28,941 nucleotides of DNA from a virus (IMGVR_UViG_3300049595_003752:76163-105103); one strand, 5' to 3'; positions 8,936-27,807 are shown, numbered from the stretch's first letter. The notes: generated by a model not told the origin, from the sequence alone. Numbers and translations are program-made.

Positions 8936-8943
8936 ATATTTAT
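8936..8943 (+). promoter_or_regulatory. Putative phage late promoter ATATTTAT (representative copy)
   Basis: Also at 540, 1331, 4077, 11740, 13640, 15613, 21003, 23022, 26548 and 27238 (+), and on the minus strand at 534, 22957 and 20989 (ATATTTAC), each upstream of a gene start. Confidence 0.7.
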
Positions 8944-8948
8944 TTGAT

Positions 8949-11720
8949 ATGAGAAATATATTTTTGTTAGAAGAATTACTTTTAGAAAATAGAATAGATG
9001 ATGTTAAAAAGAAATATCCTAACGTACCTTCTGAAGTTATAGAAGAGTTTGCTAGTAATGACCCTTCTGGTACCAACAAATATTTGGATTGGATGGTTTA
9101 TACCAAGTCTATAGGTTTTCCCGGTATTGGTACGTCAAATGTTATTAAAAATATAAATTTATTTCATAAAAACATTAACAAATTAACCAAAGAATTTTTT
9201 GATGAATTTATTAAAGAAAATAAATTTGAATGGTTACTTACTGATAACTCACCTGTAGCCAAAACTTTTCAAAATATTTATAAAAGTCCTAAAGATATTA
9301 ATACTTACAAAGATTACGGTATTGCTTCAGTAATTTTTAAATCTGTTGATAACGTGTTATCTAAATCTGAGGTTAAAAAATTAGAAGCAAATGTTTTATA
9401 CAACTCTGATGATTTATTAATCATGATTCCTAAATCACATAGAGCATCTTGTTACTACGGAGCTGGAACTAAATGGTGTACAACAAATAAAGAAAGTGAT
9501 AATTATTTTAAAAATTATACTAATAAAGGTACTTTAATTTATGTTATAAATAAAAAAGAACCTGAAACAAACCCTTGGTATAAAACTGCCTTTTTAATTG
9601 AAAAAGAAAATGGTAAAGTTCAAGCCTATGATGCTCCAGACCATCCGACCGATATAAATATTGCGGCAGAAAAATTAGGTGATAATTGGGGAATTATCAG
9701 AGACGTTATTGTAGAATATCTTTATAAAAATGAATTAAAAGGTATTGAAAACCTTTATTTTGGACAAGATTTGATTGCTTGGTTAGAATCCAAAGATATT
9801 GATCCACTTAAAACTTTAAATTCAAATCAATTAATTGAAAAATTGGGTCACAATACTTTAATATCTTATTTAAATAAAAGGGGTATTAATATATACGAAT
9901 ATCTACCGTATAGACAAATATTAGAAATTTATTCGATTCAAAAAATATGGGAAGGTTATAAAAATATCGGTATTAACCCGTTAACCAAAATGTTTATCAA
10001 ACGTAATGACGCAGACGATTTAATTCAGGCAATAAAAAATAAAACCATTTCTTTAGATGAGTTTTTACATTTAAGTTCTGACCCAAAATTTTTAGAATCT
10101 GTTTCAGGTGGTGAAGTACAAGGAACTAAAAACATTTTTACAATAATGAATTTGTTTTTTGGAAGTAGTAGACCGGACGATTGGATGAGTTCTAGAATAG
10201 CACCAGCCTTAATAGAATTATTTAACAATGATGTTGATTTGATATTTGGTTACGCTAAAAACATAGGAGTAAACTTATTCCAAGCTTTAGATGTTAGGGG
10301 TATGAACCATCTTTTAAATAAAAAATTTGATTTTGAAAATGCTTTAAAATATACCTTACAAAATAAAGATTATTTAAAAAGTACTTTAGTTAATTACGGT
10401 TTCCCTAAAAAAGAAGTTATTGAGTATCTTTCTAAACAACCCAACGGAATAGAGTTATTTAAAGAATTAGTTGACAAGGACTTAATAAAAGATTTAAGGA
10501 TAGAAGAAGTTTTACCGTTTTTTAAAGATGACAGAAAAGAAGTTTTTTTATTTTGGTTAAAATCTAAATTTAGAGGCAGGTTTGATGTTGAGGATGTTTT
10601 GGATGCTGCAGGTCCCGAAATAGGTAAAGTTTTTTCAAACATAGAATCTTTTGAAGCTTTTATAAGTGAAAATTATTTACACAAAGATTACGATATTTTA
10701 AAATCTGTTTCCATAAAATCTTTATGGAAAAGTTTTTTCAACAAAGATTTTTATCAATTATATAAAACGTTTTTAGAAAAAGGTAGAGCTAATGAACTAG
10801 ATACTTTGATGTTGATAAAGGCTTATGAAGATGCTCCTGTTGAAGAGGGTACTGGGTTAAAAAATATTGTTTTAGAAAGAGCTCATTATGAATTAAAAGG
10901 CGATAACAGATGTAAATTAGAAACTAGAGACGGTGTTGATTATATCATTTTTGAAGATTTGGACCGTGTTTTAGGGTTATTTGATGATAATGCTGATTAT
11001 TACAGTGTCCTATCAAGTAGTTTTAACCCTGATACTTATGAAAATTTTTCTGATATAAGTTATTTTTTAGACAATGAAATCACAATTAAAGTAATTAAAG
11101 ATTACCTAATGGATAATTTTAGAGAAAAAAAGGTGGGTTTAAATTTAGACTGGTTGGAAGATTTTGATGATTTAGGTGATAGAATTAAAATAGACGACAT
11201 CAACGATAAATTTTATTTTAAATTATATGATGAATTAATTCAGGGGATGTCTGGTTATAATATATTAGTATTAGTTGAAAACTCACCTGAATTAAAAAAA
11301 CTTAAAGAAGTAATTGAATCGTCTTACAGTATTGTTTATAAAGATTTACTTAGGAAAGAACTTAAAGATGAGTTGACATCGAAAATGGAAGGTATTTTTG
11401 GTGATGATTTTATGCGAACTAAAAAAATTCAAAATAAATATAAAGAACCGAAAACTGTTTATGAATTTAGGTATGATTATTTAATGGATGATATTATCAC
11501 TTTTGCTGATGATTTTGTTTTTTATGAAGAAGAACTACCCAATTCGGTTTATGATTTAATTGTATCGTTAATGGAGAATAATAAAGGTAGGTTTGACGGT
11601 ACTGTTAGTTTAGATTTAGAATATGTTATGGAAATTTGGTCCCCGTATGAAAATCAGGAATTGTTTTTAGAAACTTTTACCAATGAACTATATCAAACCC
11701 TAAGTAAATCCGAAGATTAG
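8949..11720 (+). CDS. Large hypothetical protein; N-terminal domain paralogous to 28155..28913
   Basis: DPSGTNKYLDWM...YYGAGTKWCTT...YFKNYTNKGTLIYVINK matches DPSSTNKYLPFM...VYGKSTKWCVS...YFNQYTENGVLVFVIDK. ATATTTAT lies 5 nt upstream of the ATG. Confidence 0.8.
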   Translation: MRNIFLLEELLLENRIDDVKKKYPNVPSEVIEEFASNDPSGTNKYLDWMVYTKSIGFPGIGTSNVIKNINLFHKNINKLTKEFFDEFIKENKFEWLLTDNSPVAKTFQNIYKSPKDINTYKDYGIASVIFKSVDNVLSKSEVKKLEANVLYNSDDLLIMIPKSHRASCYYGAGTKWCTTNKESDNYFKNYTNKGTLIYVINKKEPETNPWYKTAFLIEKENGKVQAYDAPDHPTDINIAAEKLGDNWGIIRDVIVEYLYKNELKGIENLYFGQDLIAWLESKDIDPLKTLNSNQLIEKLGHNTLISYLNKRGINIYEYLPYRQILEIYSIQKIWEGYKNIGINPLTKMFIKRNDADDLIQAIKNKTISLDEFLHLSSDPKFLESVSGGEVQGTKNIFTIMNLFFGSSRPDDWMSSRIAPALIELFNNDVDLIFGYAKNIGVNLFQALDVRGMNHLLNKKFDFENALKYTLQNKDYLKSTLVNYGFPKKEVIEYLSKQPNGIELFKELVDKDLIKDLRIEEVLPFFKDDRKEVFLFWLKSKFRGRFDVEDVLDAAGPEIGKVFSNIESFEAFISENYLHKDYDILKSVSIKSLWKSFFNKDFYQLYKTFLEKGRANELDTLMLIKAYEDAPVEEGTGLKNIVLERAHYELKGDNRCKLETRDGVDYIIFEDLDRVLGLFDDNADYYSVLSSSFNPDTYENFSDISYFLDNEITIKVIKDYLMDNFREKKVGLNLDWLEDFDDLGDRIKIDDINDKFYFKLYDELIQGMSGYNILVLVENSPELKKLKEVIESSYSIVYKDLLRKELKDELTSKMEGIFGDDFMRTKKIQNKYKEPKTVYEFRYDYLMDDIITFADDFVFYEEELPNSVYDLIVSLMENNKGRFDGTVSLDLEYVMEIWSPYENQELFLETFTNELYQTLSKSED

Positions 11721-11768: not shown

Positions 11769-13598
11769 ATGTCAAATGTACCACAAAATAAGGCTCAAAA
11801 ATTAATGGAGATTGGAAAGTCCATGAAGGACCCAATTTATGCCATTGAGAACTATCTTGAGACTTTTGATCAAACACAAAAAAGTTTTGTCAGATTTAAA
11901 TTATTTCCCAAACAAAAAGAATTAATAACGGCGTATAAAAACAACCGTTTTAATATAGTGATGAAACCCCGTCAGGCTGGTGTTTCTACTACAACAGCAG
12001 CTTATATAGCTGTTATGACAGCATTAGCTGACCCAAACAATCCACAAAGGGTTCTTATTTTAGCCAATAAACAAGAAACAGCGATTGAGTTTCTTAAAAA
12101 AATTAAAGATTTTACTTCACAAATACCAACATGGATGAATGTTTGGACATCAGGAAATGATGATTCTTGGTACGATGCTGAAAAAAACTCTGCAAAACAT
12201 TATCGTTTAAAAAATGGTTCTGAAATTAAAGCAGTGGCAACTTCTTTAGATGCGTTACGTGGTTATACACCTACGTTACTTGTTATGGATGAGGCGGCTT
12301 ATATTGAGGGTGGTGAAGAAGTTTACGCGGCAGCTCAACCAGCTTTATCGACGGGTGGTGGAGCCATTCTTATTAGTACACCTAATGGTATGGACCCATT
12401 ATACTATAAAACTTACATGTCAGCTAAAACTAAAGATAAAACAAACAATCCTTTTAATATCGTTGAAATGAGATGGTTCCAAGACCCACGTTATAATAAG
12501 GGTATGGTTTGGCAGAAAAAAGATGAAGTGGGTGAAGTAATAGAAGAAAAGGTTGACATGGACTACGCAAATTTTGAACAGTTAGAGTCTGAAGGTTGGC
12601 AACCAACTGCCCCTTGGTTTGAGATGATGTGTGGTCAGTTAAATAATAACCCAAGAACTATTGCACAAGAGTTATTATGTGCATTTAACGGTTCGGGTGA
12701 TAATGTTATAAACTCAAAATACGTTGAGTATCAAAAGAAAAATAACGTCAAAGACCCTATTAGAACTGAATGGTTAGACGGTAACATGTGGATATGGGAA
12801 GACCCACAATTAGGTCACGAATATATTTTATCTGTCGATGCCGCTTCTGGTTCGGCTGATGACTTCGCATCTATTTGTGTTATGGATTTTACTACAGGTC
12901 ACCAAGTTGCTGAATATCACGGTAAAATTGCACCCGATACTTTGGGTGAAATCGCGGTAGAATATGGTAATCGATATGAGGCATTTGTGGTTGTTGATAT
13001 TACGGGTGGTTATGGTGTGTCTTCAGTTTTAAAAATGATTGAGATGGGTTATTCTTCTAAAAAAATGTATTATGACGTTGTTTTAGGTATTGATTCTGTT
13101 ACAAACAATAAAAATTTAGAAAGACATATGAGAGATGGTAAATTACCTGGTCTAAACTTTCAAAAAAATAGAAATACTATTATTACTAAATTAGAAGAGG
13201 CTGTTAGATTAGATTCTTTTAAAGTACGTTCTATTAGGTCTATTGCTGAAATGGATACATTTGTATTTAAAAACGGTCGTCCTGACCATATGAAAGGTTA
13301 CCACGATGATTTATTAATGGCAATAGCGATGTGTTGTTTTGTATCTCAAACTTCTTTTAAAGATTTTGAAAAAAGTAAGGGTCAAACTAAAGCGATGTTA
13401 GATTCTTGGGTTGTTTCAACCAACACTAGTGAAACAGTTGACGCATTAAATACTTCAGAATATAACGCAGTAGTTAATAGAGAAGCGACAGCAAAACAAG
13501 TACAACATGCTTTATCTGAACATAATTGGGTTTTTGCTGGTATGAAAGGTTTTAAGGACATGGATAAAAACAAAAAAATAATAAATAGAAGAAGTTAA
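11769..13598 (+). CDS. terL: Terminase large subunit (T4 gp17-like)
   Basis: KPRQAGVST (Walker A variant), LLVMDEAAY (Walker B), LISTPNG (coupling motif), RNase H-like nuclease residues ILSVDAASG and YHDDLLMA. Directly upstream of the portal gene. Confidence 0.95.
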   Translation: MSNVPQNKAQKLMEIGKSMKDPIYAIENYLETFDQTQKSFVRFKLFPKQKELITAYKNNRFNIVMKPRQAGVSTTTAAYIAVMTALADPNNPQRVLILANKQETAIEFLKKIKDFTSQIPTWMNVWTSGNDDSWYDAEKNSAKHYRLKNGSEIKAVATSLDALRGYTPTLLVMDEAAYIEGGEEVYAAAQPALSTGGGAILISTPNGMDPLYYKTYMSAKTKDKTNNPFNIVEMRWFQDPRYNKGMVWQKKDEVGEVIEEKVDMDYANFEQLESEGWQPTAPWFEMMCGQLNNNPRTIAQELLCAFNGSGDNVINSKYVEYQKKNNVKDPIRTEWLDGNMWIWEDPQLGHEYILSVDAASGSADDFASICVMDFTTGHQVAEYHGKIAPDTLGEIAVEYGNRYEAFVVVDITGGYGVSSVLKMIEMGYSSKKMYYDVVLGIDSVTNNKNLERHMRDGKLPGLNFQKNRNTIITKLEEAVRLDSFKVRSIRSIAEMDTFVFKNGRPDHMKGYHDDLLMAIAMCCFVSQTSFKDFEKSKGQTKAMLDSWVVSTNTSETVDALNTSEYNAVVNREATAKQVQHALSEHNWVFAGMKGFKDMDKNKKIINRRS

Positions 13599-13684: not shown

Positions 13685-15610
13685 ATGGCCGACAATAAAG
13701 ATTTAACAGTATATCAGAAATTATTTTACCTTTTTGGTCAAAATAAAAAACCTGAAAGAACTACCCCAAAATATAGTTTTGGTGACGGTGATTTAATCAC
13801 CATGCAATCAAAACAAGATTACGATAAACAAAAATTAGAATTACAACAAAAAAGTTATCTTGAGTCGCAATGGCAAAGAGTAGATAATGAACTTTATCAA
13901 AAAGCTGTTTACTATGAGACCTCAAGAATTGCTTCATATATGGATTATGAGGCTATGGAATTTACACCTGAAATTTCTGCCGCTTTAGATATTATGGCAG
14001 AAGAATCTTGTACACCAAGTGAACAAGGTAAAGTACTTACCATACAATCAAACTCTAAAAGAGTTAAAAATGTTTTAGAAGATTTATTTTACAACGTAGT
14101 TGATATTCAAACTAATTTACCAATGTGGACTCGTAATACATGTAAGTATGGTGATAATTTTGTTTTCTTAAAAATTGATAATAAAAGAGGTATTATAGGT
14201 TCTTCACAATTAACTAATATTGAAATAGAACGTAAAGAAGAGGGTATGTTTCCTACACAAAAAGAAGGTAACACAACACCTATGCAAGAACAAAAGAAAA
14301 AACAAGTTATATTTCATTGGCGTGAAAAGGCCATGGATTTTAACCCATGGGAGATTGCACATTTTCGTTTATTAGGTGATGATAGACGTTTACCTTACGG
14401 TACTTCGGTGTTGGAAAAGGCTAGACGTATTTGGAAACAAATGTTATTATCTGAAGATGCGATGTTAGTTTATCGTGTTGTTAGAGCACCTGAAAGACGT
14501 GTATTTAAAATTTATGTCGGTAACATTGATGATAAAGATGTTGATGCTTATGTACAAAAAGTAGCTAATAAATTTAAAAGACAACAAATTGTTGACCAAA
14601 AAACAGGACAGGTTGATTTACGTTACAACACATTAGCTGTAGATCAAGATTATTTCGTTCCTGTTCGTGACCCTAACGCACCAAACCCAATAGATACTTT
14701 GGCGGGTGCTAGTAATTTAGATCAAATTGCTGACATTGAGTATATTCAAAAGAAATTATTAACAGCGCTTAGAGTACCTAAAGCATTTTTAGGTTTTGAT
14801 GAATCTCCTGGTGACGGTAAAAATTTAGCTTTATTAGATATTCGTTTCGCTAGAACAATTAATAGAATTCAACAATCTATGATTCAAGAATTGAATAAAT
14901 TAGCTATTATTCATTTATTTATTTTAGGGTTTACTGATGATTTAAATAATTTTACTTTAAATCTTACTAACCCATCTACTCAGGGTGAAATGTTAAAAGT
15001 TGAACAATGGAAAGAAAAAGTTCTTCTTTATAAAGATTTAGTGACTCAAGTTGATGGTGGTATAGCTCCTTCATCACATACTTGGGCTAAGAAAAATATT
15101 TTTAATTGGACCGATGAGGAAATTAAAACCGACCTTGAACAACAAATGATGGAGAGAGCTGCATCTAAAGAATTAGAAAACACACCTGAAGTTGTTAAGA
15201 AAACAGGTTTCTTTGATAGGGTTACTAAACTTTATGGTGAAATTGGTGGACCTACTCCTGCAGCTGGAGCTGAAGGTGGTGGGGTTGAAGAAGGTGGAGC
15301 TGAAGCTGGCGGTGGATTTGGTGGCGGAGGAGGATTTGGTGGTGGTGGCCTTGAACTAGGTGGTGGTGAAGAAATTGGTGGTGGAGCTGAAGTTGGTGAA
15401 GAAGGTGGTGAAGAAGGTGGTGGGGCTGAAACCGGATTTGGTGAAAGTTTTCGTTATAAAGACAAATCAATTATCGATAAGTTATTAATGGAGGGTAGAA
15501 GAAAAAATGAGGATATTATGATGATGACCGAAGGAATTAAAAATTTAATAGGTGAAGAAGAAGAAAATAGTGACAAAGATTTAGATGACTTTAATTTATT
15601 ACAAGATTAA
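13685..15610 (+). CDS. gp20: Portal protein (T4 gp20-like) with Gly/Glu-rich C-terminal extension
   Basis: LVYRVVRAPERRVFKIYVGN, QDYFVPVR, IDTLAG, DIEYIQKKLLTALRVP and DIRFARTI motifs typical of T4-type portals. Confidence 0.93.
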   Translation: MADNKDLTVYQKLFYLFGQNKKPERTTPKYSFGDGDLITMQSKQDYDKQKLELQQKSYLESQWQRVDNELYQKAVYYETSRIASYMDYEAMEFTPEISAALDIMAEESCTPSEQGKVLTIQSNSKRVKNVLEDLFYNVVDIQTNLPMWTRNTCKYGDNFVFLKIDNKRGIIGSSQLTNIEIERKEEGMFPTQKEGNTTPMQEQKKKQVIFHWREKAMDFNPWEIAHFRLLGDDRRLPYGTSVLEKARRIWKQMLLSEDAMLVYRVVRAPERRVFKIYVGNIDDKDVDAYVQKVANKFKRQQIVDQKTGQVDLRYNTLAVDQDYFVPVRDPNAPNPIDTLAGASNLDQIADIEYIQKKLLTALRVPKAFLGFDESPGDGKNLALLDIRFARTINRIQQSMIQELNKLAIIHLFILGFTDDLNNFTLNLTNPSTQGEMLKVEQWKEKVLLYKDLVTQVDGGIAPSSHTWAKKNIFNWTDEEIKTDLEQQMMERAASKELENTPEVVKKTGFFDRVTKLYGEIGGPTPAAGAEGGGVEEGGAEAGGGFGGGGGFGGGGLELGGGEEIGGGAEVGEEGGEEGGGAETGFGESFRYKDKSIIDKLLMEGRRKNEDIMMMTEGIKNLIGEEEENSDKDLDDFNLLQD

Positions 15611-15636: not shown

Positions 15637-16407
15637 ATGAATTTCGGTATAATTAAAAACACATACGCAAAATCCCTAATAGATTCATACATAAACGAAT
15701 CAAAAGGAGGTAACAAAAAGAAATATAAAGAATTTATTAAAAGTATTTCTGAAAGTCCTATTCTAAGAACACAGTTTATTGTTTATAAAAACATTGAGAA
15801 CGGTTGTTTTGACTCAGAAGTTAATGCCACTGAATATTTAAAAGAAAATATTTCATTATTTAATGAGTTTGGTAAAAAAGATATCATTAAAGAAAATGAA
15901 AAGTTAGGTAATAAAATAAAAATTACTTCTTTTGGTTATGAATTAAAACAGTTACACGAATCTTTAAATGATTTAATTGTTTTAGAAAAAAAGGCTGAAA
16001 CTATTAATAAAATCCACAATTCTTTTGAGTACGTTAAAAAATGGTTACTTTCACCTAAAAAAATTAACGAATCGACAAGTAATGTAAAACCTGTTGATGC
16101 TAATAAATTTTTAGATATTGTAACTAAAAAATATAACGAAAAGTATTCTAATATTTCTGAAGAAGAAAAAAAAGTTTTAAAAACTATTCTTTCTACAAAT
16201 GATATAGAAAAAGAAAGTTTATTAAAAGACATGGTTAAAGAATCTATCACACTTATCAACAACTCTTTAAAACAATTTGGTGATAATTTAGAAATTAAAT
16301 CTAAATTATTAGAGGCTAAAGATGTTGTTTATAATTTAGAGTATAACAAGGACTCTTTTAAAGAAGATATTTTAAAAGTTTACGAACTTAAAACAAATTT
16401 AAGTTAA
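15637..16407 (+). CDS. Hypothetical head-module protein
   Basis: 256-aa helical ORF after the portal gene, with ATATTTAT at 15613-15620. Confidence 0.75.
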   Translation: MNFGIIKNTYAKSLIDSYINESKGGNKKKYKEFIKSISESPILRTQFIVYKNIENGCFDSEVNATEYLKENISLFNEFGKKDIIKENEKLGNKIKITSFGYELKQLHESLNDLIVLEKKAETINKIHNSFEYVKKWLLSPKKINESTSNVKPVDANKFLDIVTKKYNEKYSNISEEEKKVLKTILSTNDIEKESLLKDMVKESITLINNSLKQFGDNLEIKSKLLEAKDVVYNLEYNKDSFKEDILKVYELKTNLS

Positions 16408-16432
16408 TAACAAATTTTAAAACCCGTTTCTA

Positions 16433-16678
16433 ATGATTAAAACAGAATCAGAAAATTTAGTAAAGTTACGTCAAATAGTAAAAGAAATCGAATCTAAAGA
16501 ATTTGATTTTGGTGATGATAAAGATTATCAGAGACTTATTGAAAGTGTTGATAGTTTGATACATAATGAAATGGGTAAGATTAATTGTGAAACTAATAAA
16601 GATTGTAAAATAAAATCTTACGAAACTTTATTCACGTCTATTATAACAATTTTAGAAGGTAGTAAACATTTAATTTAA
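16433..16678 (+). CDS. Hypothetical protein
   Basis: 81-aa ORF filling the gap in the operon. Confidence 0.7.
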   Translation: MIKTESENLVKLRQIVKEIESKEFDFGDDKDYQRLIESVDSLIHNEMGKINCETNKDCKIKSYETLFTSIITILEGSKHLI

Positions 16679-16679
16679 A

Positions 16680-17015
16680 ATGTCACAACAAGAAGAAAAT
16701 TTCAAAACACTTTGGGCTGAATATTCTAAGTTGGTCCTTAAAGAACTTGATAGGATGAACAACAACTATGAAAATTTAAGAGAGAATATTGAAAATATTA
16801 ACTCTAAATTAAATGATGTTAAAAACACAGAAAAATCCTTACATGATTTAAAAATTTGGCAAGAAAAAATAAATGATGTGTGGTCACCTTCTCAAATGAA
16901 AGAAGCTAAAGATGAGGTTTATAAACAAAAAAATCGTTGGACAGCGACTATAGCAATTTTATTATTTATACAAATAATAGTCGGAATTATTGTCTCACTA
17001 AAAGTATTTTTTTAA
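16680..17015 (+). CDS. Coiled-coil protein with C-terminal transmembrane helix (possible holin-like/membrane protein)
   Basis: Heptad-rich N-terminus and hydrophobic TATIAILLFIQIIVGIIVSLKVFF C-terminus. Confidence 0.55.
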   Translation: MSQQEENFKTLWAEYSKLVLKELDRMNNNYENLRENIENINSKLNDVKNTEKSLHDLKIWQEKINDVWSPSQMKEAKDEVYKQKNRWTATIAILLFIQIIVGIIVSLKVFF

Positions 17016-19443: not shown

Positions 19444-20976
19444 TTAAATAGAAATTTCTTCTACTTTTCCTTCAACTTCAAAAGGATATATTGGAGACCA
19501 TTCTGTAATATCGTTTGACATTACGGGTTTACCACCTTCCATTCTATTAACAGCAATTGTAATATGTGGGATTTTATTTTGTGTTTTAATTTCGGATTCC
19601 ACCTTAACAGCCACAACTTTGTCTGTTTGTCCTATATGAGTTACTAATAAATCAAAGGGTTGGTCTAAAAGAGGTTTAGACTCTTCTTTAAGTGGGCCCA
19701 TATTGATGGTCATGTGATGCCCAATAAATTCCCAATCTTTTGGGTGCGGAATATATTTTTTTAATAGTTTTCTTGATTCTTCATTAAGAATTACGCCTGA
19801 ATAACTTACCTTTTTTTTAGATTCATTCATAAGTTTTAAAAATTTTTCTTTTTCTATTCTTTCTTTTTCTTGGCCAATTTCACGACCTTTAAAACCTTTT
19901 TTTATTAGGTCATCACCTGAAGTTGTTATTTTATATTCTAAAAAAGTGTCTACAATTTTATTAGGTATTTTCATTAAGTTACTAAATGTTCTTAGTGTTT
20001 CTTCAGATATCCCGATAACTTCAAATCTTTCACGTAATTTATAAACATCTGTCCCGTATTGTAAAAACTTAATTAAGAAACTGATTTCTTTTACTTCATC
20101 AACTGTATACTTAAGCTTGTTAACTAATGTTTTTTCAACCAATGTAGGCTCGTTACTTTGTAGTAAAACAGCTATAAGTACGTTAGCCTCTTTAGTCTCA
20201 ATTAAAGGTTCTGTTGTAACTACAAGTCTACCAAATATCCAGTCCCAAAGATTGTACTTAGTTATTAATTGTGTAAAATACCCTACAGACTGTGCTTGTT
20301 TAATACCTTTAAGAAATTCATCTCTAATACGTTCTTGTGATATTGGAAGTCCGTTACCACTAATAGTGGTTTTATCTTTACTTATAGCACTTTCAATGTC
20401 TTTATCCACATCGGAACCAACACGGGCGGCAAATCTAAGTGCTCTAAGTACACGTAGTTTATCCTCATCGAAACGCTCTACTGCTGAACCAACTGTTCTA
20501 ACCACGTTTCTTTCAATGTCACCAATACCACCAACCAAGTCAACCACTTCACCTTTATCTATATCATAGAAAAGAGCGTTGATGGTTAAATCACGACGCT
20601 TAACATCTTGGTCAATTGTAGTAAACTCTACAGAGTCAGGTCGTCTACCTTTACCAATGTCTTTACGGAAAGTAGCTATTTCATATTGACCATCTTCCGT
20701 GACTACGTTAACAATCCCAAATTGTTCACCCAATTCAATTGTACGGTACATGTTTAGAATAGACTTAATTTCTTCGGGTTTAGCGTTAGTAGCTAAATCA
20801 AAATCTTTAGGTTCATTACCATAAAGTAAATCCCGCACAGCACCACCAACAACATATAACTCATAACCGTTTTCCTTGAAAATTTGGTTCATTTTCAATA
20901 CGGAATTAGGTAGGTCCATGTGTATTTTCTTTCTTACCACTTCTTCTTTTAAGATTTTTCGAATCAGGTTCTTCAT
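19444..20976 (-). CDS. cca: Class II tRNA nucleotidyltransferase (CCA-adding enzyme) fused to C-terminal 2H phosphoesterase
   Basis: VGGAVRDLL...KDFDLAT, GEQFG, EIATFRKD..GRRP loop, RRDLTINAL, EDKLRVLRALRF. The C-terminal region (about 19444-19830) has two HxT motifs (HHMTI, PHITI). Confidence 0.88.
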   Translation of the reverse strand: MKNLIRKILKEEVVRKKIHMDLPNSVLKMNQIFKENGYELYVVGGAVRDLLYGNEPKDFDLATNAKPEEIKSILNMYRTIELGEQFGIVNVVTEDGQYEIATFRKDIGKGRRPDSVEFTTIDQDVKRRDLTINALFYDIDKGEVVDLVGGIGDIERNVVRTVGSAVERFDEDKLRVLRALRFAARVGSDVDKDIESAISKDKTTISGNGLPISQERIRDEFLKGIKQAQSVGYFTQLITKYNLWDWIFGRLVVTTEPLIETKEANVLIAVLLQSNEPTLVEKTLVNKLKYTVDEVKEISFLIKFLQYGTDVYKLRERFEVIGISEETLRTFSNLMKIPNKIVDTFLEYKITTSGDDLIKKGFKGREIGQEKERIEKEKFLKLMNESKKKVSYSGVILNEESRKLLKKYIPHPKDWEFIGHHMTINMGPLKEESKPLLDQPFDLLVTHIGQTDKVVAVKVESEIKTQNKIPHITIAVNRMEGGKPVMSNDITEWSPIYPFEVEGKVEEISI

Positions 20977-21031
20977 ATAATGTAAATATATGAATTTATT
21001 GCATATTTATATAGAAAAACTTTTTATAAAA

Positions 21032-21817
21032 ATGAAAATTTTAAAATCTAACGAAACAGGTAAAGGTATCTTAGTCGAATATGACGCGGGTTATATTTCA
21101 CCTGATATATCGTATAAAGGTACAAAAAATGCTGATTTAATTCGTGAATTTAAATCAGGTACAAATATAGGAAAAGACGGTAGTCTACCAGACGTAGTTA
21201 TTGTTTACGCAGTACTTCAAAAATGGGGTATTGAAAATAAAAACGGAAGATTATACCCAAAAGAAATTCTTGAAAGAGAAAATACTAGATACCAAGAATA
21301 TATTAAAATGGGTACATCTCTTGGTGAGTTAAACCACCCTGAATCTTCCATCATTGATGCAGACAGAGTATCTCACAGAATTACTAAAACTTGGTGGGAT
21401 GGTAAAACACTTATGGGTGAGATGGAATTGGATACAACTCCAGGATATCACAAGTTAGGTGTTATTTCTTCGGTTGGTGATAAAGTTGTTAACATGATTA
21501 GAAAAGGTTGGACTGTTGGTATTTCATCTCGTGGTGTTGGATCACTTAAAGTTGAAAACGGTAAAAACGTAGTACAAGATGACTTTGAATTAATTTGTTG
21601 GGATATTGTAACATCTCCGTCAACCCCAGGTTCTTGGATTTCAACTGACGCTGGTGATTTAAAAACATTTACAGAATCAACCCAAGGTTGTAACGGTTAC
21701 TCTTGTCAATGGAACCTAATTGAAGAGGCCCCTAAAAAAGAAACTGTAAGTTTCAAAGATATCACTAACCATAATAGTGATAAATTATTAAACAGTTTAA
21801 ATAAATTTTTAAAATGA
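21032..21817 (+). CDS. gp21: Prohead core protease (T4 gp21-like); start revised from 20990 to 21032
   Basis: NKNGRLYP, GELNHP (His), GISSRGVGS (Ser), WDIVTSPS. ATATTTAT at 21003-21010 lies inside the longer ORF call, which favours the MKILK start. Confidence 0.92.
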   Translation: MKILKSNETGKGILVEYDAGYISPDISYKGTKNADLIREFKSGTNIGKDGSLPDVVIVYAVLQKWGIENKNGRLYPKEILERENTRYQEYIKMGTSLGELNHPESSIIDADRVSHRITKTWWDGKTLMGEMELDTTPGYHKLGVISSVGDKVVNMIRKGWTVGISSRGVGSLKVENGKNVVQDDFELICWDIVTSPSTPGSWISTDAGDLKTFTESTQGCNGYSCQWNLIEEAPKKETVSFKDITNHNSDKLLNSLNKFLK

Positions 21818-22098
21818 GTAAAGTAGTTAGATTAAACGAAAAAGATATTGAAAGATTGGTTAGAAAAATCATGTCCGAAGATAAACAATCGAAGACGGTT
21901 GATATGAAAGGTAAGAAGTGTACCAATTGTAAAAAAGGTAAATACGGTGAAACATCACAACTTGACGATTTAGAAGGTGTACTTCATTGTACAAATTGTG
22001 GAAAAAAAACCGATAGATATGTAGATAAAACCGTAAAAGAATCTTGGCCAAAAAGAGAATTAGAAAGAAAAGTAATTAATTTCCGTAGAGATATTTAA
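21814..22098 (+). CDS. Small zinc-ribbon protein with N-terminal VVRLNEKDIERLVRKIMSE tag
   Basis: CTNC...HCTNC pair. ATGA overlap with the protease gene. Confidence 0.7.
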   Translation: MSKVVRLNEKDIERLVRKIMSEDKQSKTVDMKGKKCTNCKKGKYGETSQLDDLEGVLHCTNCGKKTDRYVDKTVKESWPKRELERKVINFRRDI

Positions 22099-22168
22099 AT
22101 TGCGCAGCTGCGCTTTTGCAAAAGCAGCTTAGCAAGCAGCAAAAGATCTAAAAAATTAAAAATGGAAG

Positions 22169-22199
22169 GGGATATGTAGTTTACATATCCCTTTTTTTT
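22169..22199 (+). terminator. Intrinsic terminator
   Basis: gggatatgta-gtt-tacatatccc plus T8. Confidence 0.85.
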
Positions 22200-22237
22200 A
22201 TATAAAATTACCGTATAACAATTAAAATAATAAACAA

Positions 22238-22471
22238 ATGGATAATAATGTAGCAAAATACTTTTTAGTAAAGGTAGAATTTGAAACCATTAATGAAAGT
22301 AATGGTAAACAGAAAAAAATTAGAACACAATATCTTGTGGATGCAATGACTTGTACTGAGGCTGAAGCTCGTACTCGTACTTATTTAAAAGATTCTGTAA
22401 TGGATTATGAAATTGTAAGTACAACAAAAAGTCCTATTGAAGACGTTATTGAAGTACTTGTAAAGGCTTAA
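22238..22471 (+). CDS. DUF4494-like protein
   Basis: YFLVKVEFE...NGKQKK...YLVDAMTCTEAEAR pattern recalled for the Bacteroidota DUF4494 family. Confidence 0.7.
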   Translation: MDNNVAKYFLVKVEFETINESNGKQKKIRTQYLVDAMTCTEAEARTRTYLKDSVMDYEIVSTTKSPIEDVIEVLVKA

Positions 22472-22944
22472 TGACGATATTGTTTTGGTAAACCTACTTT
22501 GTTAGCAACCTTTTGGAAAACCCCACCATGGTTTCTAGCTTCAGTATCTTCCAATCCGTGAGCGGCATGAATTAATTCGTGTTTAATAATATCTTCAACG
22601 TATTCAGTATCATTAAGGGCCTTGGGATGAATCTTCATTATTCCAAGGTCTTTTTTATTTTCAGGATGTTTAAATGAACCTATCTTTCCGGCTTTAATTT
22701 TATCATCCACTTTAACAACAATGTTATCGTCACTAACAGGTTCTTCACCTGTAATTTCTTTATAAGCTTTTTCTACCTTTTTTTTAATACGGTCCTTCAT
22801 GTTGTCAACTTTTTTAGTTTCTTTTGGAAACTTGGAATTCTTTGTTGCCTTTTCCTGAGCATAGTCAACTTTTCTCATAAAATCATTCGATTCTAAATGA
22901 TCCTCAATAAATTCTCGTAATATTTTTCTGATATTATTTCTCAT
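22468..22944 (-). CDS. SprT-like zinc metallopeptidase domain protein; start revised to 22944 (MRNNIRKILRE)
   Basis: IIKHELIHAAHG...HGGVF (HExxH plus downstream His). TATTTAT (minus, 22956-22950) lies inside the longer 23019 ORF call, 5 nt before the 22944 ATG. Confidence 0.75.
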   Translation of the reverse strand: MRNNIRKILREFIEDHLESNDFMRKVDYAQEKATKNSKFPKETKKVDNMKDRIKKKVEKAYKEITGEEPVSDDNIVVKVDDKIKAGKIGSFKHPENKKDLGIMKIHPKALNDTEYVEDIIKHELIHAAHGLEDTEARNHGGVFQKVANKVGLPKQYRH

Positions 22945-23083
22945 CATAAATAAATATCCCAATTTTTTAATAAAAAAATTACTTTTTTCTCTTGACTTGT
23001 TGCACTTTACTGTAGGCAAACATATTTATTTAAAAATCTTGCATAAGTGTGCAAGATAAATTATAATTCGTTAAAAAATAAAA

Positions 23084-24634
23084 ATGAAAATGGCAAACGA
23101 AAAGAAATCAATTATTGAGGAAGCTCTTCTTGAAGCCGAGCAAATCGACGCCGCTTTCAAATCTAACGCAAAAGAAATACTGTCTCAGACAATGAGTTCA
23201 GAAATTGAAGAAATGGTAAAGGAATCATTAACTGGTTCGAAAAAAAGATTGAAGGAGGAAGATGAAGAGGAAGAAATGGATTTAGACCTTGAATTAGACA
23301 CCGAAGAAGGTGAAGAAGAAGGGGAAGAATTCGAAGAAATGGATTTAGATATGGACACCGAAGAAGGTGAAGAATCTGAAGACATGGATTTAGACATGGA
23401 CATGGATACTGAAGACATGGGTATGGACTTAGATTTAGGCGATGAGTCTGAAGAAGGTTCTGAAATGGATTTAGATATGGATATGGACATGGAAAATGAA
23501 CCGTCTGGTGAGGAAATGGAAACAGTAGACCTTACTAACGTTAGTGATGATTCTAAATTAATCTCCGTTTTTAAAAAAATGGGCCCAGAAGATGAAATAG
23601 AAGTTGTTAACGATAACGGAATGGTTACATTAAAAGATAACAAATCTGGTTCTGAGTACAGAATCGAACTTAATTCAACTGGAGGAGTTTCTAACGTTGA
23701 GACTTCTGAAATTGAATTGGGTGAAGGTACTGAAGAATCTGGTCAAATTATTTATGAAATCGTTGTGGATGATGAAGACGAAATGTCTGATTACATGATG
23801 GATTACGCATCTGATGAAGACGAAATGTCTGATTATATGATGGACTACGCATCTGATGAAGATAAAATGATGGACCATATGGATTACGCATCTGATGAAG
23901 ATGAAATGTCTTCTTACATGGATTATAAGAAAAGTGGTTTAAAGAACCCAGGTAAAGCTGATTTAAATAAAGACCATGACATTACCCCTTACGAAAAGAA
24001 AAGAGGAATGGCAATCGAAAAATCTATGGCCGGTAAAGATGATGAAGATGAAATGTCTTATATGTCTAGAAGAGTAACTACTAAAGGTAGATACGCTACT
24101 GGAAATAGAACAAACACTAATGCCATTAACAGAATGGGTGGTGCTGAATCTTATAAGTCTACTTACGGAATGTCTGAATCAAAAACTCCACAGATTACAA
24201 AACTCATCAAAGAAAATACAAATTTAAATACAAAATTAACATCTATTGAAAGTGAAAATACTGAATTAAAAGATACTCAAGAAAAAATGGTTGAGGCTCT
24301 TAAACAATTCAGAAAGAAACTTCAAGAGGTGGCTGTCTTTAACAGCAATCTTACTTACGCTGTAAGATTATTCACTGAAAACTCTACTACAAAAGAAGAA
24401 AAACAAGAAATTTTAAAAAGATTAGATTCGGCTAAAGATTTAAAAGAATCTCAATCAATTTATAAACAACTTGTTAAAGAATACACCAACGGTAAAGCTA
24501 CTATTAAGGAATCTATCGAAGAGAAAATTAACAAGACTGCTTCTAGTGGGGCACAAATTAGTGAATCAAGCGTATTTGTACACCCTGAGTTACAAAACAT
24601 GAAAAAACTTTGGGAGTACTCATATAAAAAATAA
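23084..24634 (+). CDS. Prohead scaffold/core protein (gp22-like position)
   Basis: Highly acidic, coiled-coil C-terminus, many LxE/IxE motifs, immediately upstream of the major capsid gene. Confidence 0.8.
   Translation: MKMANEKKSIIEEALLEAEQIDAAFKSNAKEILSQTMSSEIEEMVKESLTGSKKRLKEEDEEEEMDLDLELDTEEGEEEGEEFEEMDLDMDTEEGEESEDMDLDMDMDTEDMGMDLDLGDESEEGSEMDLDMDMDMENEPSGEEMETVDLTNVSDDSKLISVFKKMGPEDEIEVVNDNGMVTLKDNKSGSEYRIELNSTGGVSNVETSEIELGEGTEESGQIIYEIVVDDEDEMSDYMMDYASDEDEMSDYMMDYASDEDKMMDHMDYASDEDEMSSYMDYKKSGLKNPGKADLNKDHDITPYEKKRGMAIEKSMAGKDDEDEMSYMSRRVTTKGRYATGNRTNTNAINRMGGAESYKSTYGMSESKTPQITKLIKENTNLNTKLTSIESENTELKDTQEKMVEALKQFRKKLQEVAVFNSNLTYAVRLFTENSTTKEEKQEILKRLDSAKDLKESQSIYKQLVKEYTNGKATIKESIEEKINKTASSGAQISESSVFVHPELQNMKKLWEYSYKK
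23771..23926 (+). repeat. Tandem coding repeat of about 42 nt (DEDEMSDYMMDYAS), about 3.7 copies
   Basis: Units start at 23771, 23813, 23855 and 23894. Confidence 0.9.
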
Positions 24635-24668
24635 TAATAAAAAATAACAAAAACAAAAACCTATAAAA

Positions 24669-26465
24669 ATGGGATATTTATTAAAATCAGGTGAGGTTGG
24701 TAATATCGGATTAAAGCACCAAAAAGCTATCCGTGAGGCAACTGTAAACAAATGGGAATCTTTAGGATTCTTAGAAGGCTTAGAAGGCCATATCAGAGAA
24801 AACATCGCTTTGTTATATGAAAACCAAGCGTCAGTTCTTATCAATGAAACTACCACTGCTGGTGGTGTTGGTACACAAGGAAGTTCTTCTGGTTCTTTCG
24901 AAACAGTTGTATTTCCTATCGTAAGACGTGTGTTCTCTAAATTATTAGCTAACGACATCGTTTCTGTACAAGCATTAAACTTACCTATCGGTAAATTATT
25001 CTACTTCGTACCTAAACGTTCTGAGAGAATTGATGATTCAGCTTTCTTGGCAGGTACAAATGGTGGTACATCTAAACATGGTGAGCCTATCGTTACAACT
25101 TGTGTTGATGCAGCTAGTAACTGTGATTTAACATCATACAGTGCTTGTTTAAAGAATCTTTATGATGCTTTCTACAATGACGGTCTTTTTGATCAATCAA
25201 AAGGTATGATAACTTTAAAAGTTGTTACAGGTTCTACTTGTGTAGTATGGACAGCTTGTACTAATGGATTTGAATTTGGTGCAGGAAAAACTCCAGCAGC
25301 AACTGATGGTTCATTACGTCACCAAATTATTGAAGTTACAGGATTTAATTCAACCGGTGCTGGTCGTTTAATCACTCCAGACGGTAATGAAATGGATACT
25401 GAATCTTTCTTAGCATCTTTAACTGTTTCTGCAACTGCAAACATTCTTGACCCAGCTGGTCAAACAATTTACAGTAACGGTGATTCAATTCCTTTCCGTG
25501 TGGTAACACAAAAATATGGTAAAGGTATTGTTCAGTACGGTGATATCTGTACAGCTGATGGTAAACTTTATATTGAAGTTGACTTAACTCACCCAACTTG
25601 TGTAACTTGTGGTACTAACACATTTGATGGTTACATTGGAGCTGATTATACTGGAACTACTTGTTCTGAAATCGCTGGTTTCATTTCTTGGAGACAATAC
25701 TCTGACCTTGAAGCTGAATCAGAAATGGGAGAAGTTTCTTTCGAACTTCAATCTGTAACTGTATCTGTTACTGAAAGAAAATTAAGAGCTACTTGGACTC
25801 CTGAATTAGCACAAGACGTTAGTGCATTCCACAACATCGATGCTGAAGCTGAATTAACAGCATTATTATCTGAGCAAGTTGCAGCTGAAATTGACCGTGA
25901 AATCTTAATCGATTTACGTAAAGGTGCGGCATGGCAATTACGTTGGGATTACAACGGTTGGAAGCGTTTACCAAACAACAATGGTTACACTCAAAAAGAT
26001 TGGAACCAAACTTTGATGACAGCTATCAACCAAATCTCAGCTCAAATCCATAAATCTACATTAAGAGGTGGAGCTAACTTTATCGTTGTATCTTCTGAGG
26101 TATCAGCAGTATTCGATGATTTAGAATATTTCCACGTATCTAACGCAGCTCCTGAGCAAGATCAGTATAACATGGGTATTGAAAGAGTAGGTTCATTAAG
26201 TGGACGTTACACTGTATACCGTGACCCTTACGCTCCAGCATATTCAGTTATCATTGGACACAAAGGTAAGTCATTGTTAGACACTGGTTACATCTACGCT
26301 CCATACGTACCGATGCAGTTAACACCTACAATGTACAATCCGTTTAACTTCGTACCTGTTAAAGGTATCATGACTCGTTACGCTAAAAAAATGGTGAACA
26401 ACCGCTTTTACGGCCATATCAGAGTTGACGGTTTACGTACTTTTGATGTTAGAGAATTACGTTAA
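24669..26465 (+). CDS. gp23: Major capsid protein (T4 gp23-like)
   Basis: FPIVRRVF..L.A.DIVSVQ, RKLRATWTPELAQD..A.H.IDAEAEL..LLSEQVAAEIDREI, GYIYAPYVP and GIMTRYA motifs. Confidence 0.96.
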   Translation: MGYLLKSGEVGNIGLKHQKAIREATVNKWESLGFLEGLEGHIRENIALLYENQASVLINETTTAGGVGTQGSSSGSFETVVFPIVRRVFSKLLANDIVSVQALNLPIGKLFYFVPKRSERIDDSAFLAGTNGGTSKHGEPIVTTCVDAASNCDLTSYSACLKNLYDAFYNDGLFDQSKGMITLKVVTGSTCVVWTACTNGFEFGAGKTPAATDGSLRHQIIEVTGFNSTGAGRLITPDGNEMDTESFLASLTVSATANILDPAGQTIYSNGDSIPFRVVTQKYGKGIVQYGDICTADGKLYIEVDLTHPTCVTCGTNTFDGYIGADYTGTTCSEIAGFISWRQYSDLEAESEMGEVSFELQSVTVSVTERKLRATWTPELAQDVSAFHNIDAEAELTALLSEQVAAEIDREILIDLRKGAAWQLRWDYNGWKRLPNNNGYTQKDWNQTLMTAINQISAQIHKSTLRGGANFIVVSSEVSAVFDDLEYFHVSNAAPEQDQYNMGIERVGSLSGRYTVYRDPYAPAYSVIIGHKGKSLLDTGYIYAPYVPMQLTPTMYNPFNFVPVKGIMTRYAKKMVNNRFYGHIRVDGLRTFDVRELR

Positions 26466-26487
26466 TCGTATTATACTCTATAAATTT

Positions 26488-26515
26488 AAAAGGGTGGTTT
26501 TTACCACCCTTTTTT
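26488..26515 (+). terminator. Intrinsic terminator after the capsid gene
   Basis: aaaagggtggt-tttt-accaccctttt plus T run. Confidence 0.88.
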
Positions 26516-26547
26516 ATGATCTATTTATAATAAACGTTAATATGGGT

Positions 26548-26563
26548 ATATTTATATTATATG
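26548..26563 (+). repeat. 16-bp direct repeat, left copy (ATATTTATATTATATG)
   Basis: Identical to 27238-27253. Includes the promoter-like motif and the start codon. Confidence 0.9.
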
Positions 26564-27493
26564 GGAAAGAAAAGAATTGAAATACCTGAAGATGTTTTAT
26601 TAGAAATGGTAAGATTATATAATGAAGAATATGTTGGTACCCCATCATTGTCAGATAGATTTGGTTACCATAAATCTATTATATTAAGAAGTTTTAAAAA
26701 CAAAGGTGTTGTCTTAGGTCCATCTGGTCGTAAATGGACTGGTGGTAGAGAGATTGCTGATAAAAAATGGAGAGAAAAAAATAAAGAAAAATTATCCGAA
26801 TATCATAAAGAATGGTCAGAAAAAAACCGAGAATATTTACGTGAATATCATGCCAAATGGCGTGAAGTAAATCGTGAATCATTAAACGAATATAAAAGAC
26901 ATTACGAAAAAACCAAAAAAGATTCTGACCCAGCTTATAAATTGGCTTGTTACACCAGAACTGCCATCTATACTTGTTTAAAAGAAAGAAATGTTGATAA
27001 ATATAAAAATACTTTTGATTTATTACCTTATACGTTGGAAGAGCTGATTCAACATTTGGAACTTAGATTTCAAGAAGGTATGTCGTGGGATAATTATGGA
27101 AGATGGCATGTTGATCACATTAAACCAATGGTTTCTTTTAATATTAAAGAACCGACTGATAAAGAATTTCAAGATTGTTGGTCTTTAAGTAATTTACAAC
27201 CATTATGGGAACAAGATAATTTATCCAAAGGTGGTAGATATTTATATTATATGCCAAAGAACTATATACCATACGATCTAGCCTTAAAATTGAATGAAAA
27301 GGGTTATAATGTATCCACTCATGCTTATTATAACATCTATAATAAACATATATTTATTCACACACCTGTCAATCATAATGAAGCTATATGGGCACCAACT
27401 TTTGGTGAGACTATTGATTGGTTCAAAGAAAATTACGATATTGATGTACAACCAAATGTAGAATCTATTGAAGAGGCTTTGAATAAAATATGA
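26561..27493 (+). CDS. HNH-type homing endonuclease (26561-27250) fused in frame to a separate small gene (27251-27493)
   Basis: N-terminal HTH-like region, K/E-rich helix, MSWDNYGRWHVDHIKP...NLQPLWEQDNLSKG, then RYLYY-MPKNYIPYDLALKLNEKGY... with its own promoter-like motif and ATG. Confidence 0.8.
   Translation: MGKKRIEIPEDVLLEMVRLYNEEYVGTPSLSDRFGYHKSIILRSFKNKGVVLGPSGRKWTGGREIADKKWREKNKEKLSEYHKEWSEKNREYLREYHAKWREVNRESLNEYKRHYEKTKKDSDPAYKLACYTRTAIYTCLKERNVDKYKNTFDLLPYTLEELIQHLELRFQEGMSWDNYGRWHVDHIKPMVSFNIKEPTDKEFQDCWSLSNLQPLWEQDNLSKGGRYLYYMPKNYIPYDLALKLNEKGYNVSTHAYYNIYNKHIFIHTPVNHNEAIWAPTFGETIDWFKENYDIDVQPNVESIEEALNKI
27238..27253 (+). repeat. 16-bp direct repeat, right copy
   Basis: Identical to 26548-26563. 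Confidence 0.9.
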
Positions 27494-27807
27494 AAGATTT
27501 AATTCTTAAAATACTAAAAGAATCGGAAGATGAATTTGATTGGATTGAGTCACCTTTCGGTATTGACGATAATCTAATGAACTATCTAATCCAAAATTAC
27601 CGTGTTGGGGAATATAATGACGTGGCAAAAGAGTTCTTAGGCATTAAATACGTGATGGTTGATGATAAAATGTACCCACTTGAAGGCCATAAAAAACAAT
27701 TAACTAATAAAATCTATTGGGAGGTTGTTGATGAATTTCCTAACATGAACCAACCTGTTTTAAGAAGAACAATTAAAACTTTTTTAAACAATATCACTAG
27801 TAACTAA
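27490..27807 (+). CDS. Hypothetical protein with MKDLILKILKE N-terminal tag
   Basis: 105-aa ORF with ATGA overlap. Confidence 0.8.
   Translation: MKDLILKILKESEDEFDWIESPFGIDDNLMNYLIQNYRVGEYNDVAKEFLGIKYVMVDDKMYPLEGHKKQLTNKIYWEVVDEFPNMNQPVLRRTIKTFLNNITSN

Follow-up and report, generated by a model that had tools for sequence, protein, structure and literature searches.

Three unrelated proteins encoded in a 28,941-nucleotide stretch of viral DNA (IMGVR_UViG_3300049595_003752:76163-105103, hereafter the window) begin with nearly the same 11 residues: a CCA-adding enzyme with a C-terminal 2H phosphoesterase-like domain, a SprT-like HExxH protein and a 105-aa protein. We propose that this N-terminal tag may be a portable capsid-targeting propeptide of the phage T4 type, carried by accessory enzymes, and on the comparisons described below we give this reading about an even chance. 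From the same comparisons we infer docking, cleavage, packaging and ejection of the tagged proteins. They would be produced together with the head proteins, and the tag helix would make them dock on the scaffold core as the prohead assembles. The gp21-type serine protease encoded nearby would cut after the terminal Glu of the tag, in the same hydrophobic-hydrophobic-x-Glu context as at the capsid maturation site. This cut would free the mature enzyme inside the head, which it would leave with the DNA at the next infection.

The three N-termini lie exactly where the original prediction had placed them (Table 1). The genome-wide scan of N-termini that it had called for, using the pattern [IL]xx[IL][LI][KR]E, matched 7 of 161 proteins, with every match beginning at residue 5. 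Residue shuffles gave an expectation of 0.05-0.08 matches, so the excess is ~100-fold, and away from N-termini the pattern was found once in ~32,000 residues. A position matrix scan yielded nine proteins scoring at least 23, with all other start sites at or below 17; the two proteins added by the matrix start with TTG and GTG. Three of the nine tagged proteins are in the window and six elsewhere on the 105-kb record. The tag occupies residues 1-11 in all nine, and the proteins have no significant BLAST match to each other beyond residue 20. The consensus is M-(K/R)-x-(L)-I-x-(K/Q)-I-L-(K/R)-E, with I5, I8 and E11 invariant, Leu at residue 9 in eight tags and Ile in the remaining one. De novo clustering of all N-termini of the genome returned the tagged group and nothing comparable, and ten proteins encoded elsewhere in the genome, six tagged ones among them, had no match to a Pfam family. 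An origin by chance or composition was ruled out by the shuffles. We regard it as very improbable that many proteins independently gained a generic helix for solubility or folding, without a partner in common, or that the tag is a compositional by-product: a G+C content of 30.5% and proteins rich in Lys, Ile, Leu, Asn and Glu would favour such helices, but not a ~100-fold excess with the register fixed at residue 5 and invariant residues, nor conservation in homologues with a consensus that varies by lineage.

Selection acts on the tag peptide and not on its DNA, because three start codons (ATG, TTG and GTG) are in use among the tagged genes and five codons each encode Leu4 (CTT, CTA, CTC, CTG, TTA) and Ser12 (AGC, AGT, TCA, TCT, TCG, from both serine families). 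DNA identity among the nine tags is 70%, and their codon differences comprise 113 synonymous and 118 non-synonymous ones. The DNA upstream of the tagged genes is unrelated except for one 7-mer, ATATTTA. It was found 6 nt before the start in 5/9 tagged genes compared to 17/152 others (Fisher p=0.003), and the remaining four tagged genes directly follow ATATTTA-led genes with no gap. With a spacing of 3-10 nt it precedes the start codon of 22 genes of the genome, five of them tagged. It also lies ahead of the terminase and portal genes and of others in the head module, and a block of small genes at 34-51 kb nearly lacks it. This pattern fits co-expression of the tagged genes with the head genes, and we infer their timing from it. 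ATATTTA(T) stands at a near-constant distance (5-9 nt) from start codons, suggesting a phage promoter that yields almost leaderless mRNAs.

The same data bear on a reading in which the peptide has no function and only reflects expression, either through a demand for A/T-rich, unstructured 5' coding sequence in near-leaderless late mRNAs or through a mobile cassette of promoter plus start. The proximity of ATATTTA to the ATG of 22 genes and the A/T-rich tag codons would agree with this, as would the tag of T4 ipII and ipIII, which is common to both genes even at the DNA level. We nevertheless consider it improbable. Synonymous changes make up about half of the codon differences, several codons encode the invariant residues and nothing upstream is conserved beyond the 7-mer. 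Four tagged genes lack a motif of their own and 17 motif genes lack the tag; shuffling the first 30 residues gives 0.08 matches compared to 7 observed, and insertion of whole domains behind the tag leaves it at the N-terminus. A nucleotide-level element or recombination cassette was likewise ruled out, by the codon diversity and by upstream DNA that is not conserved.

The adjacent prohead protease aligned with the T4 gp21 structure (5JBL; E=9e-19), including the catalytic His (NHPES) and Ser (SSRGVGS) motifs. Its open reading frame (ORF) opens at 20990, 14 codons upstream of Met15, and the true start is probably 21032 because relatives conserve a start, MKILK, there. In an alignment of the N-terminal region of the capsid protein to T4 gp23, E60 of VLINE falls on E65 of FLTE↓A (the arrow stands after the Glu in question), which we take to be the gp21 cut site. 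The site is conserved in the capsid genes of relatives as L-[IL]-[NT]-E↓[STA] (among 45 of 81 aligned rows). The tag ends in I-L-K-E, most often followed by Ser. The motifs to which the original prediction had pointed were all present: VLINE60 in the capsid protein, and in the scaffold RLKE58, LIKE377 and TIKE476. The hydrophobic-hydrophobic-x-Glu pattern within residues 3-21 was enriched 2.7-3.7 fold in this genome and 2.5-4.0 fold in the relative G002; the same pattern ending in Asp was not enriched (0.9-1.0 fold). A complex prediction of scaffold, protease and the tagged 105-aa protein, each with its alignment, scored 0.00; it was run without controls and bears on binding neither way. The scaffold itself has a tag-like EIEEMVKESL at about residues 40-49, which relatives keep as EEIxELVKESL, and its middle is very acidic, repetitive and rich in Met, Asp and Glu.

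Table 1. Features of the window and, where marked, of the genome outside it.
Feature	Position	Strand	Remarks
ATATTTA	8936-8942		one of the 22 genome sites near a start codon
923-aa protein	8949-11720	+	multi-copy family with DPSGTNKY motif; leader MRNIFLLEELLLE
Large terminase	11769-13598
Portal	13685-15610		then three small proteins before the CCA gene; small proteins at 15637-17015
CCA-adding enzyme, C-terminal 2H-like domain	19444-20976	-
Tag MKNLIRKILKE	20944-20976	-	first 11 codons of the CCA-adding/2H gene
ATATTTA	20983-20989	-	6 nt upstream of the CCA start
gp21-type (Peptidase_S77) prohead protease	21032-21817	+	Pfam PF03420, E=4e-28
94-aa protein	21814-22098	+	directly after the protease; second leader type MSKVVRLNEKDIERLVRKIMSE
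DUF4494 protein	between the 94-aa and SprT-like genes
SprT-like HExxH protein	22468-22944	-	start is the second ATG of the ORF
Tag MRNNIRKILRE	22912-22944	-	first 11 codons of the SprT-like gene
ATATTTA	22951-22957	-	6 nt upstream of the SprT-like start
Acidic scaffold protein	23084-24634	+	several hydrophobic-x-Glu sites
gp23-like major capsid protein	24669-26465	+	Pfam Gp23, E=3e-69
Predicted capsid maturation cut	24846-24848		after Glu60 (codon given), VLINE↓TTT
ATATTTA	26548-26554	+	6 nt upstream of the HNH/EndoVII-like start
HNH/EndoVII-like gene	26561-27493	+	stop overlaps the start of the tagged 105-aa gene
105-aa protein	27490-27807	+	hypothetical protein
Tag MKDLILKILKE	27490-27522	+	first 11 codons of the 105-aa gene; SEDEFDW next
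SE(D/E)(D/E)F(D/G)W, multi-module protein	genome 4592-6007	-
SE(D/E)(D/E)F(D/G)W, multi-module protein	genome 20580-21605	+

A comparison with cellular homologues, likewise called for earlier, indicated that the tag is not integral to the CCA and SprT families, as solved CCA enzymes and the family models start downstream of it; the original prediction was not refuted on this count. Alignment of the CCA protein with solved CCA and poly(A) polymerase structures begins at query residue 20-28, alignment with CCA genes of cultured phages at residue 18-40, and the Pfam PolyA_pol match at residue 40. None of the cultured phages in the collection had a tagged CCA gene. Since solved enzymes align only from residues 20-28 and the CCA genes of cultured phages lack the tag, it is an add-on and not part of the enzymes. 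In the SprT-like protein, the Pfam match begins at residue 104 and the PHROG match at residue 45.

Metagenomic CCA homologues retain the tag down to ~50% identity, and where an extra module is inserted the tag remains at the extreme N-terminus, ahead of the insert. Hydrophobic-hydrophobic-x-Glu occurs within residues 3-22 in 67 of the 71 CCA homologues that have an N-terminal extension. CCA relatives exist with the tag, with other leaders or without any: the G002 enzyme has no extension and begins directly at the catalytic domain, and that of the relative G001 has an extension with the same hydrophobic spacing and no Glu. Public gene calls give the CCA protein either as a 510-aa form with the tag or as a 491-aa form from Met20; conservation of the tag in frame in diverged homologues favours the longer form, which we take as the probable one. 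Nearly all of 66 database homologues of the SprT-like protein retain the tag, and four short gene calls start further downstream. In this family the residue after the tag Glu is invariably Phe or Tyr, and a second site, (F/Y)-(V/I)-E, lies three residues beyond the tag. A cut before Phe or Tyr would expose a bulky hydrophobic N-terminus, which is a degradation signal in bacteria. The 105-aa protein retained the tag in 11/11 aligned homologues. In its AlphaFold model, a linker of low confidence separates a helix (residues 2-11) from a folded domain (residues 27-104); a Foldseek search of this model against the PDB returned nothing at E<=0.001.

Propeptides of 10-20 aa serve for capsid targeting in T4 (PMC5694885, PMC9026906). 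Those of the internal proteins IPI, IPII and IPIII, of gp24 and of Alt, which the gp21 prohead protease removes, resemble the tag in being short N-terminal peptides on unrelated proteins that end in (L/I)-x-Glu (PMC9026906, PMC5694885, PMC3012670). Further likenesses are a gp21-family protease, a gp23-family capsid protein with an aligned maturation site, and helix-like hydrophobic spacing. T4 gp24 begins MAKINELLRE↓S, matching the pattern used in our scan, and Alt begins MELITE. With the IPII/IPIII tag, MKTYQEFIAE, the phage tag shares only Met-Lys, the hydrophobic spacing and the terminal Glu. In addition, nine DNA-diverged copies are found here in a third of a genome, in contrast to the ipII and ipIII tags, which are identical in DNA, and the cargo, known from sequence alone, would include sizeable enzymes, namely the CCA-adding/2H fusion, the HExxH protein and members of the large multi-copy family.

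Collectively, the cleaved capsid-loading signal envisaged by the original prediction found its expected sequence features in a tag of 11 aa, within the T4 range of 10-20 residues, at the extreme N-terminus, a hydrophobic-x-Glu end of the (L/I)-x-Glu type that matches the capsid site, a neighbouring S77 protease that has its catalytic residues, portability, and a lack of the tag in homologues from cells and cultured phages. Sequence similarity to the IPII/IPIII tag was missing, and DILKMVES of the 7084 gene, which had been counted as a related tag, is internal, at about residue 125, and drops out.

Several observations weigh against loading into the head. Capsid, protease and scaffold genes are the same in the complete 345-kb relative G001, which has no shared tag, and the head therefore does not require it. 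The clade has no cultured member, and the tag was absent from all cultured phages in the collection; a literature search found no virion proteome for the clade. We know of no precedent for a CCA/2H tRNA-repair enzyme or a SprT-like protease as a packaged protein, and both could act just as well in the cytoplasm. Proteomes rich in Lys, Glu, Ile and Leu commonly contain hydrophobic-x-Glu motifs, and the Asp control is not decisive because Glu is preferred over Asp in any helix. Finally, the tag is basic and the IPII/IPIII tag acidic, and the sequences are unlike.

Alternatively, the tag could be a shared docking or regulatory helix for some other hub, such as a membrane, a phage chaperone or unfoldase (Clp-type ATPase), a replication or assembly factory, or a degradation signal, with the Glu at its end reflecting the plain shape of an amphipathic helix. 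This explanation, which we consider unlikely although well ahead of the two discussed above, draws on the high hydrophobic moment of the tag helix (0.6-0.8), its detachment from the fold in the AlphaFold model, the typically cytoplasmic nature of CCA, SprT-like and acetyltransferase enzymes, and the tagless G001, which builds the same head. Any genome-specific receptor would also yield the concerted evolution within genomes described below. The N-terminus of an 838-aa protein (genome 69313-71829, - strand) resembles, in our own reading, the N-domain of Clp-type ATPases, and this protein is a conceivable alternative reader of N-terminal tags. A docking helix leaves unexplained why the tag end matches both the capsid maturation site and the T4 gp24 propeptide, why L-x-E↓S recurs in three leader types of the clade, and why tagged and head genes have a start-proximal motif in common. 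For Sec export or membrane insertion the tag lacks a hydrophobic core: a charged residue occurs every 2-3 positions, where a Sec or lipoprotein signal peptide has at least 7 hydrophobic residues after a basic N-region. True signal peptides of the relatives cluster separately.

Concerted evolution was evident from the CCA genes. Within this genome, 8/11 residues agree between the CCA and SprT tags. A 342-kb phage has the CCA tag MKDFIKQKIRENLLTES and an adjoining acetyltransferase that begins MRDFVKNKIRERLLNES, with 12/17 residues identical, whereas the tags of the CCA orthologues from that phage and this genome are only 4/11 identical. In the 642-kb phage LR756502.1, CCA begins MIITKYAKFLES, and about 10 of 71 neighbours begin MKHLKRFNEE-like. 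Tags are thus more alike within a genome than between orthologues. As CCA tags match their genome neighbours and not their orthologues, the CCA family wears whichever leader its genome uses, and at least three distant phage lineages each give it a leader of their own, matched to the genome.

De novo clustering of G002 and G005 returned leader types other than the canonical tag, and all leader types of relatives contain L-x-E↓S. In G002, the leader MKYLITESQ is found on 13 proteins. A 22-residue leader, MKxIIRLTESDLxRIVKRVIxE, is present on six proteins in G002, eight in G005 and the 94-aa protein of the window; it also occurs at G000:47109-47435 and recurs on unrelated small proteins. The gene right after the prohead protease carries it both in the window and in G005. 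No shared leader was returned by clustering for the complete G001 or the fragment G004, and the suggestion that every relative has dozens of tagged proteins was not upheld. Besides 7084, the original prediction had listed two related tags. The one at 21814 is real but belongs to this different, longer leader, and that at 8949 is a family-level leader with a loose likeness; the canonical tag was found on a paralogue of the 923-aa protein at genome 32884.

In the giant phages phiKZ, 201phi2-1 and SPN3US, head, inner-body and ejection proteins are likewise processed by a protease related to gp21, whose three-residue motif ends in the Glu after which it cuts; many internal proteins are processed, and paralogue families occur (PMC5694885, PMC9026906). 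Their propeptides are mostly ~60-130 aa long and do not form one common short sequence, and their motif is (S/A/G)-x-E, in contrast to hydrophobic-x-E here. Encapsulin cargo-loading peptides are comparable in that a short portable peptide sends unrelated enzymes into a shell of the HK97 fold. These peptides usually sit at the C-terminus, attach to the shell protein itself and stay uncleaved, and no such motif was seen here.

If the tag is a capsid-targeting propeptide, the clade may pre-load its capsids with a changeable kit of enzymes, here the CCA-adding/2H enzyme, the SprT-like metalloprotease and about a dozen others, by way of lineage-specific, co-evolving N-terminal tags. CCA would be a recurrent cargo, delivering tRNA 3'-end repair with the DNA as a first-minute counter to host defences that target tRNA. 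We offer this scenario tentatively, and the counter-defence or host-takeover role that the original prediction gave the tagged enzymes is speculation. A loading signal would provide a sequence-only readout of the proteins injected by an uncultured jumbo phage and, for phages of a non-model host group, a compact tag with which to package foreign proteins. It would also carry the T4 internal-protein principle beyond small anti-restriction proteins to enzymes, for example a tRNA-repair CCA/2H fusion. The concerted evolution of tags within genomes gives a handle for finding the receptor. Should the tag not serve for loading, a peptide enriched 100-fold and confined strictly to the N-termini of unrelated late proteins would still mark a sorting or regulatory system.

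In three proteins the tag is followed by the motif SE(D/E)(D/E)F(D/G)W (window 27523-27545 among the sites). This motif was also observed at module junctions within two multi-module proteins (Table 1), invariably after [LIM]-x-Glu. Such recurrence could reflect polyprotein-like processing or a conserved domain start.

The window is the terminal 28.9 kb of a 105,103-bp virus record. CheckV completeness of the record was 33%, and relatives whose capsid proteins are 61-79% identical include complete genomes of 294 and 345 kb. Together with the T4-type head genes, these results identify the window as a piece of a jumbo phage that is uncultured and has a head module of the T4 type; a megablast search with the region found no match among cultured phages. 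The HNH/EndoVII-like gene between the capsid gene and the tagged 105-aa gene occupies the same place in 25 relatives, and in relatives tagged genes from several families are grouped just downstream of the capsid gene. The host is probably a member of the Bacteroidota. G002 and G005 have clusters of Sec-type signal peptides ending in ...SQ or ...AQ, a style presumably associated with hosts of this phylum.

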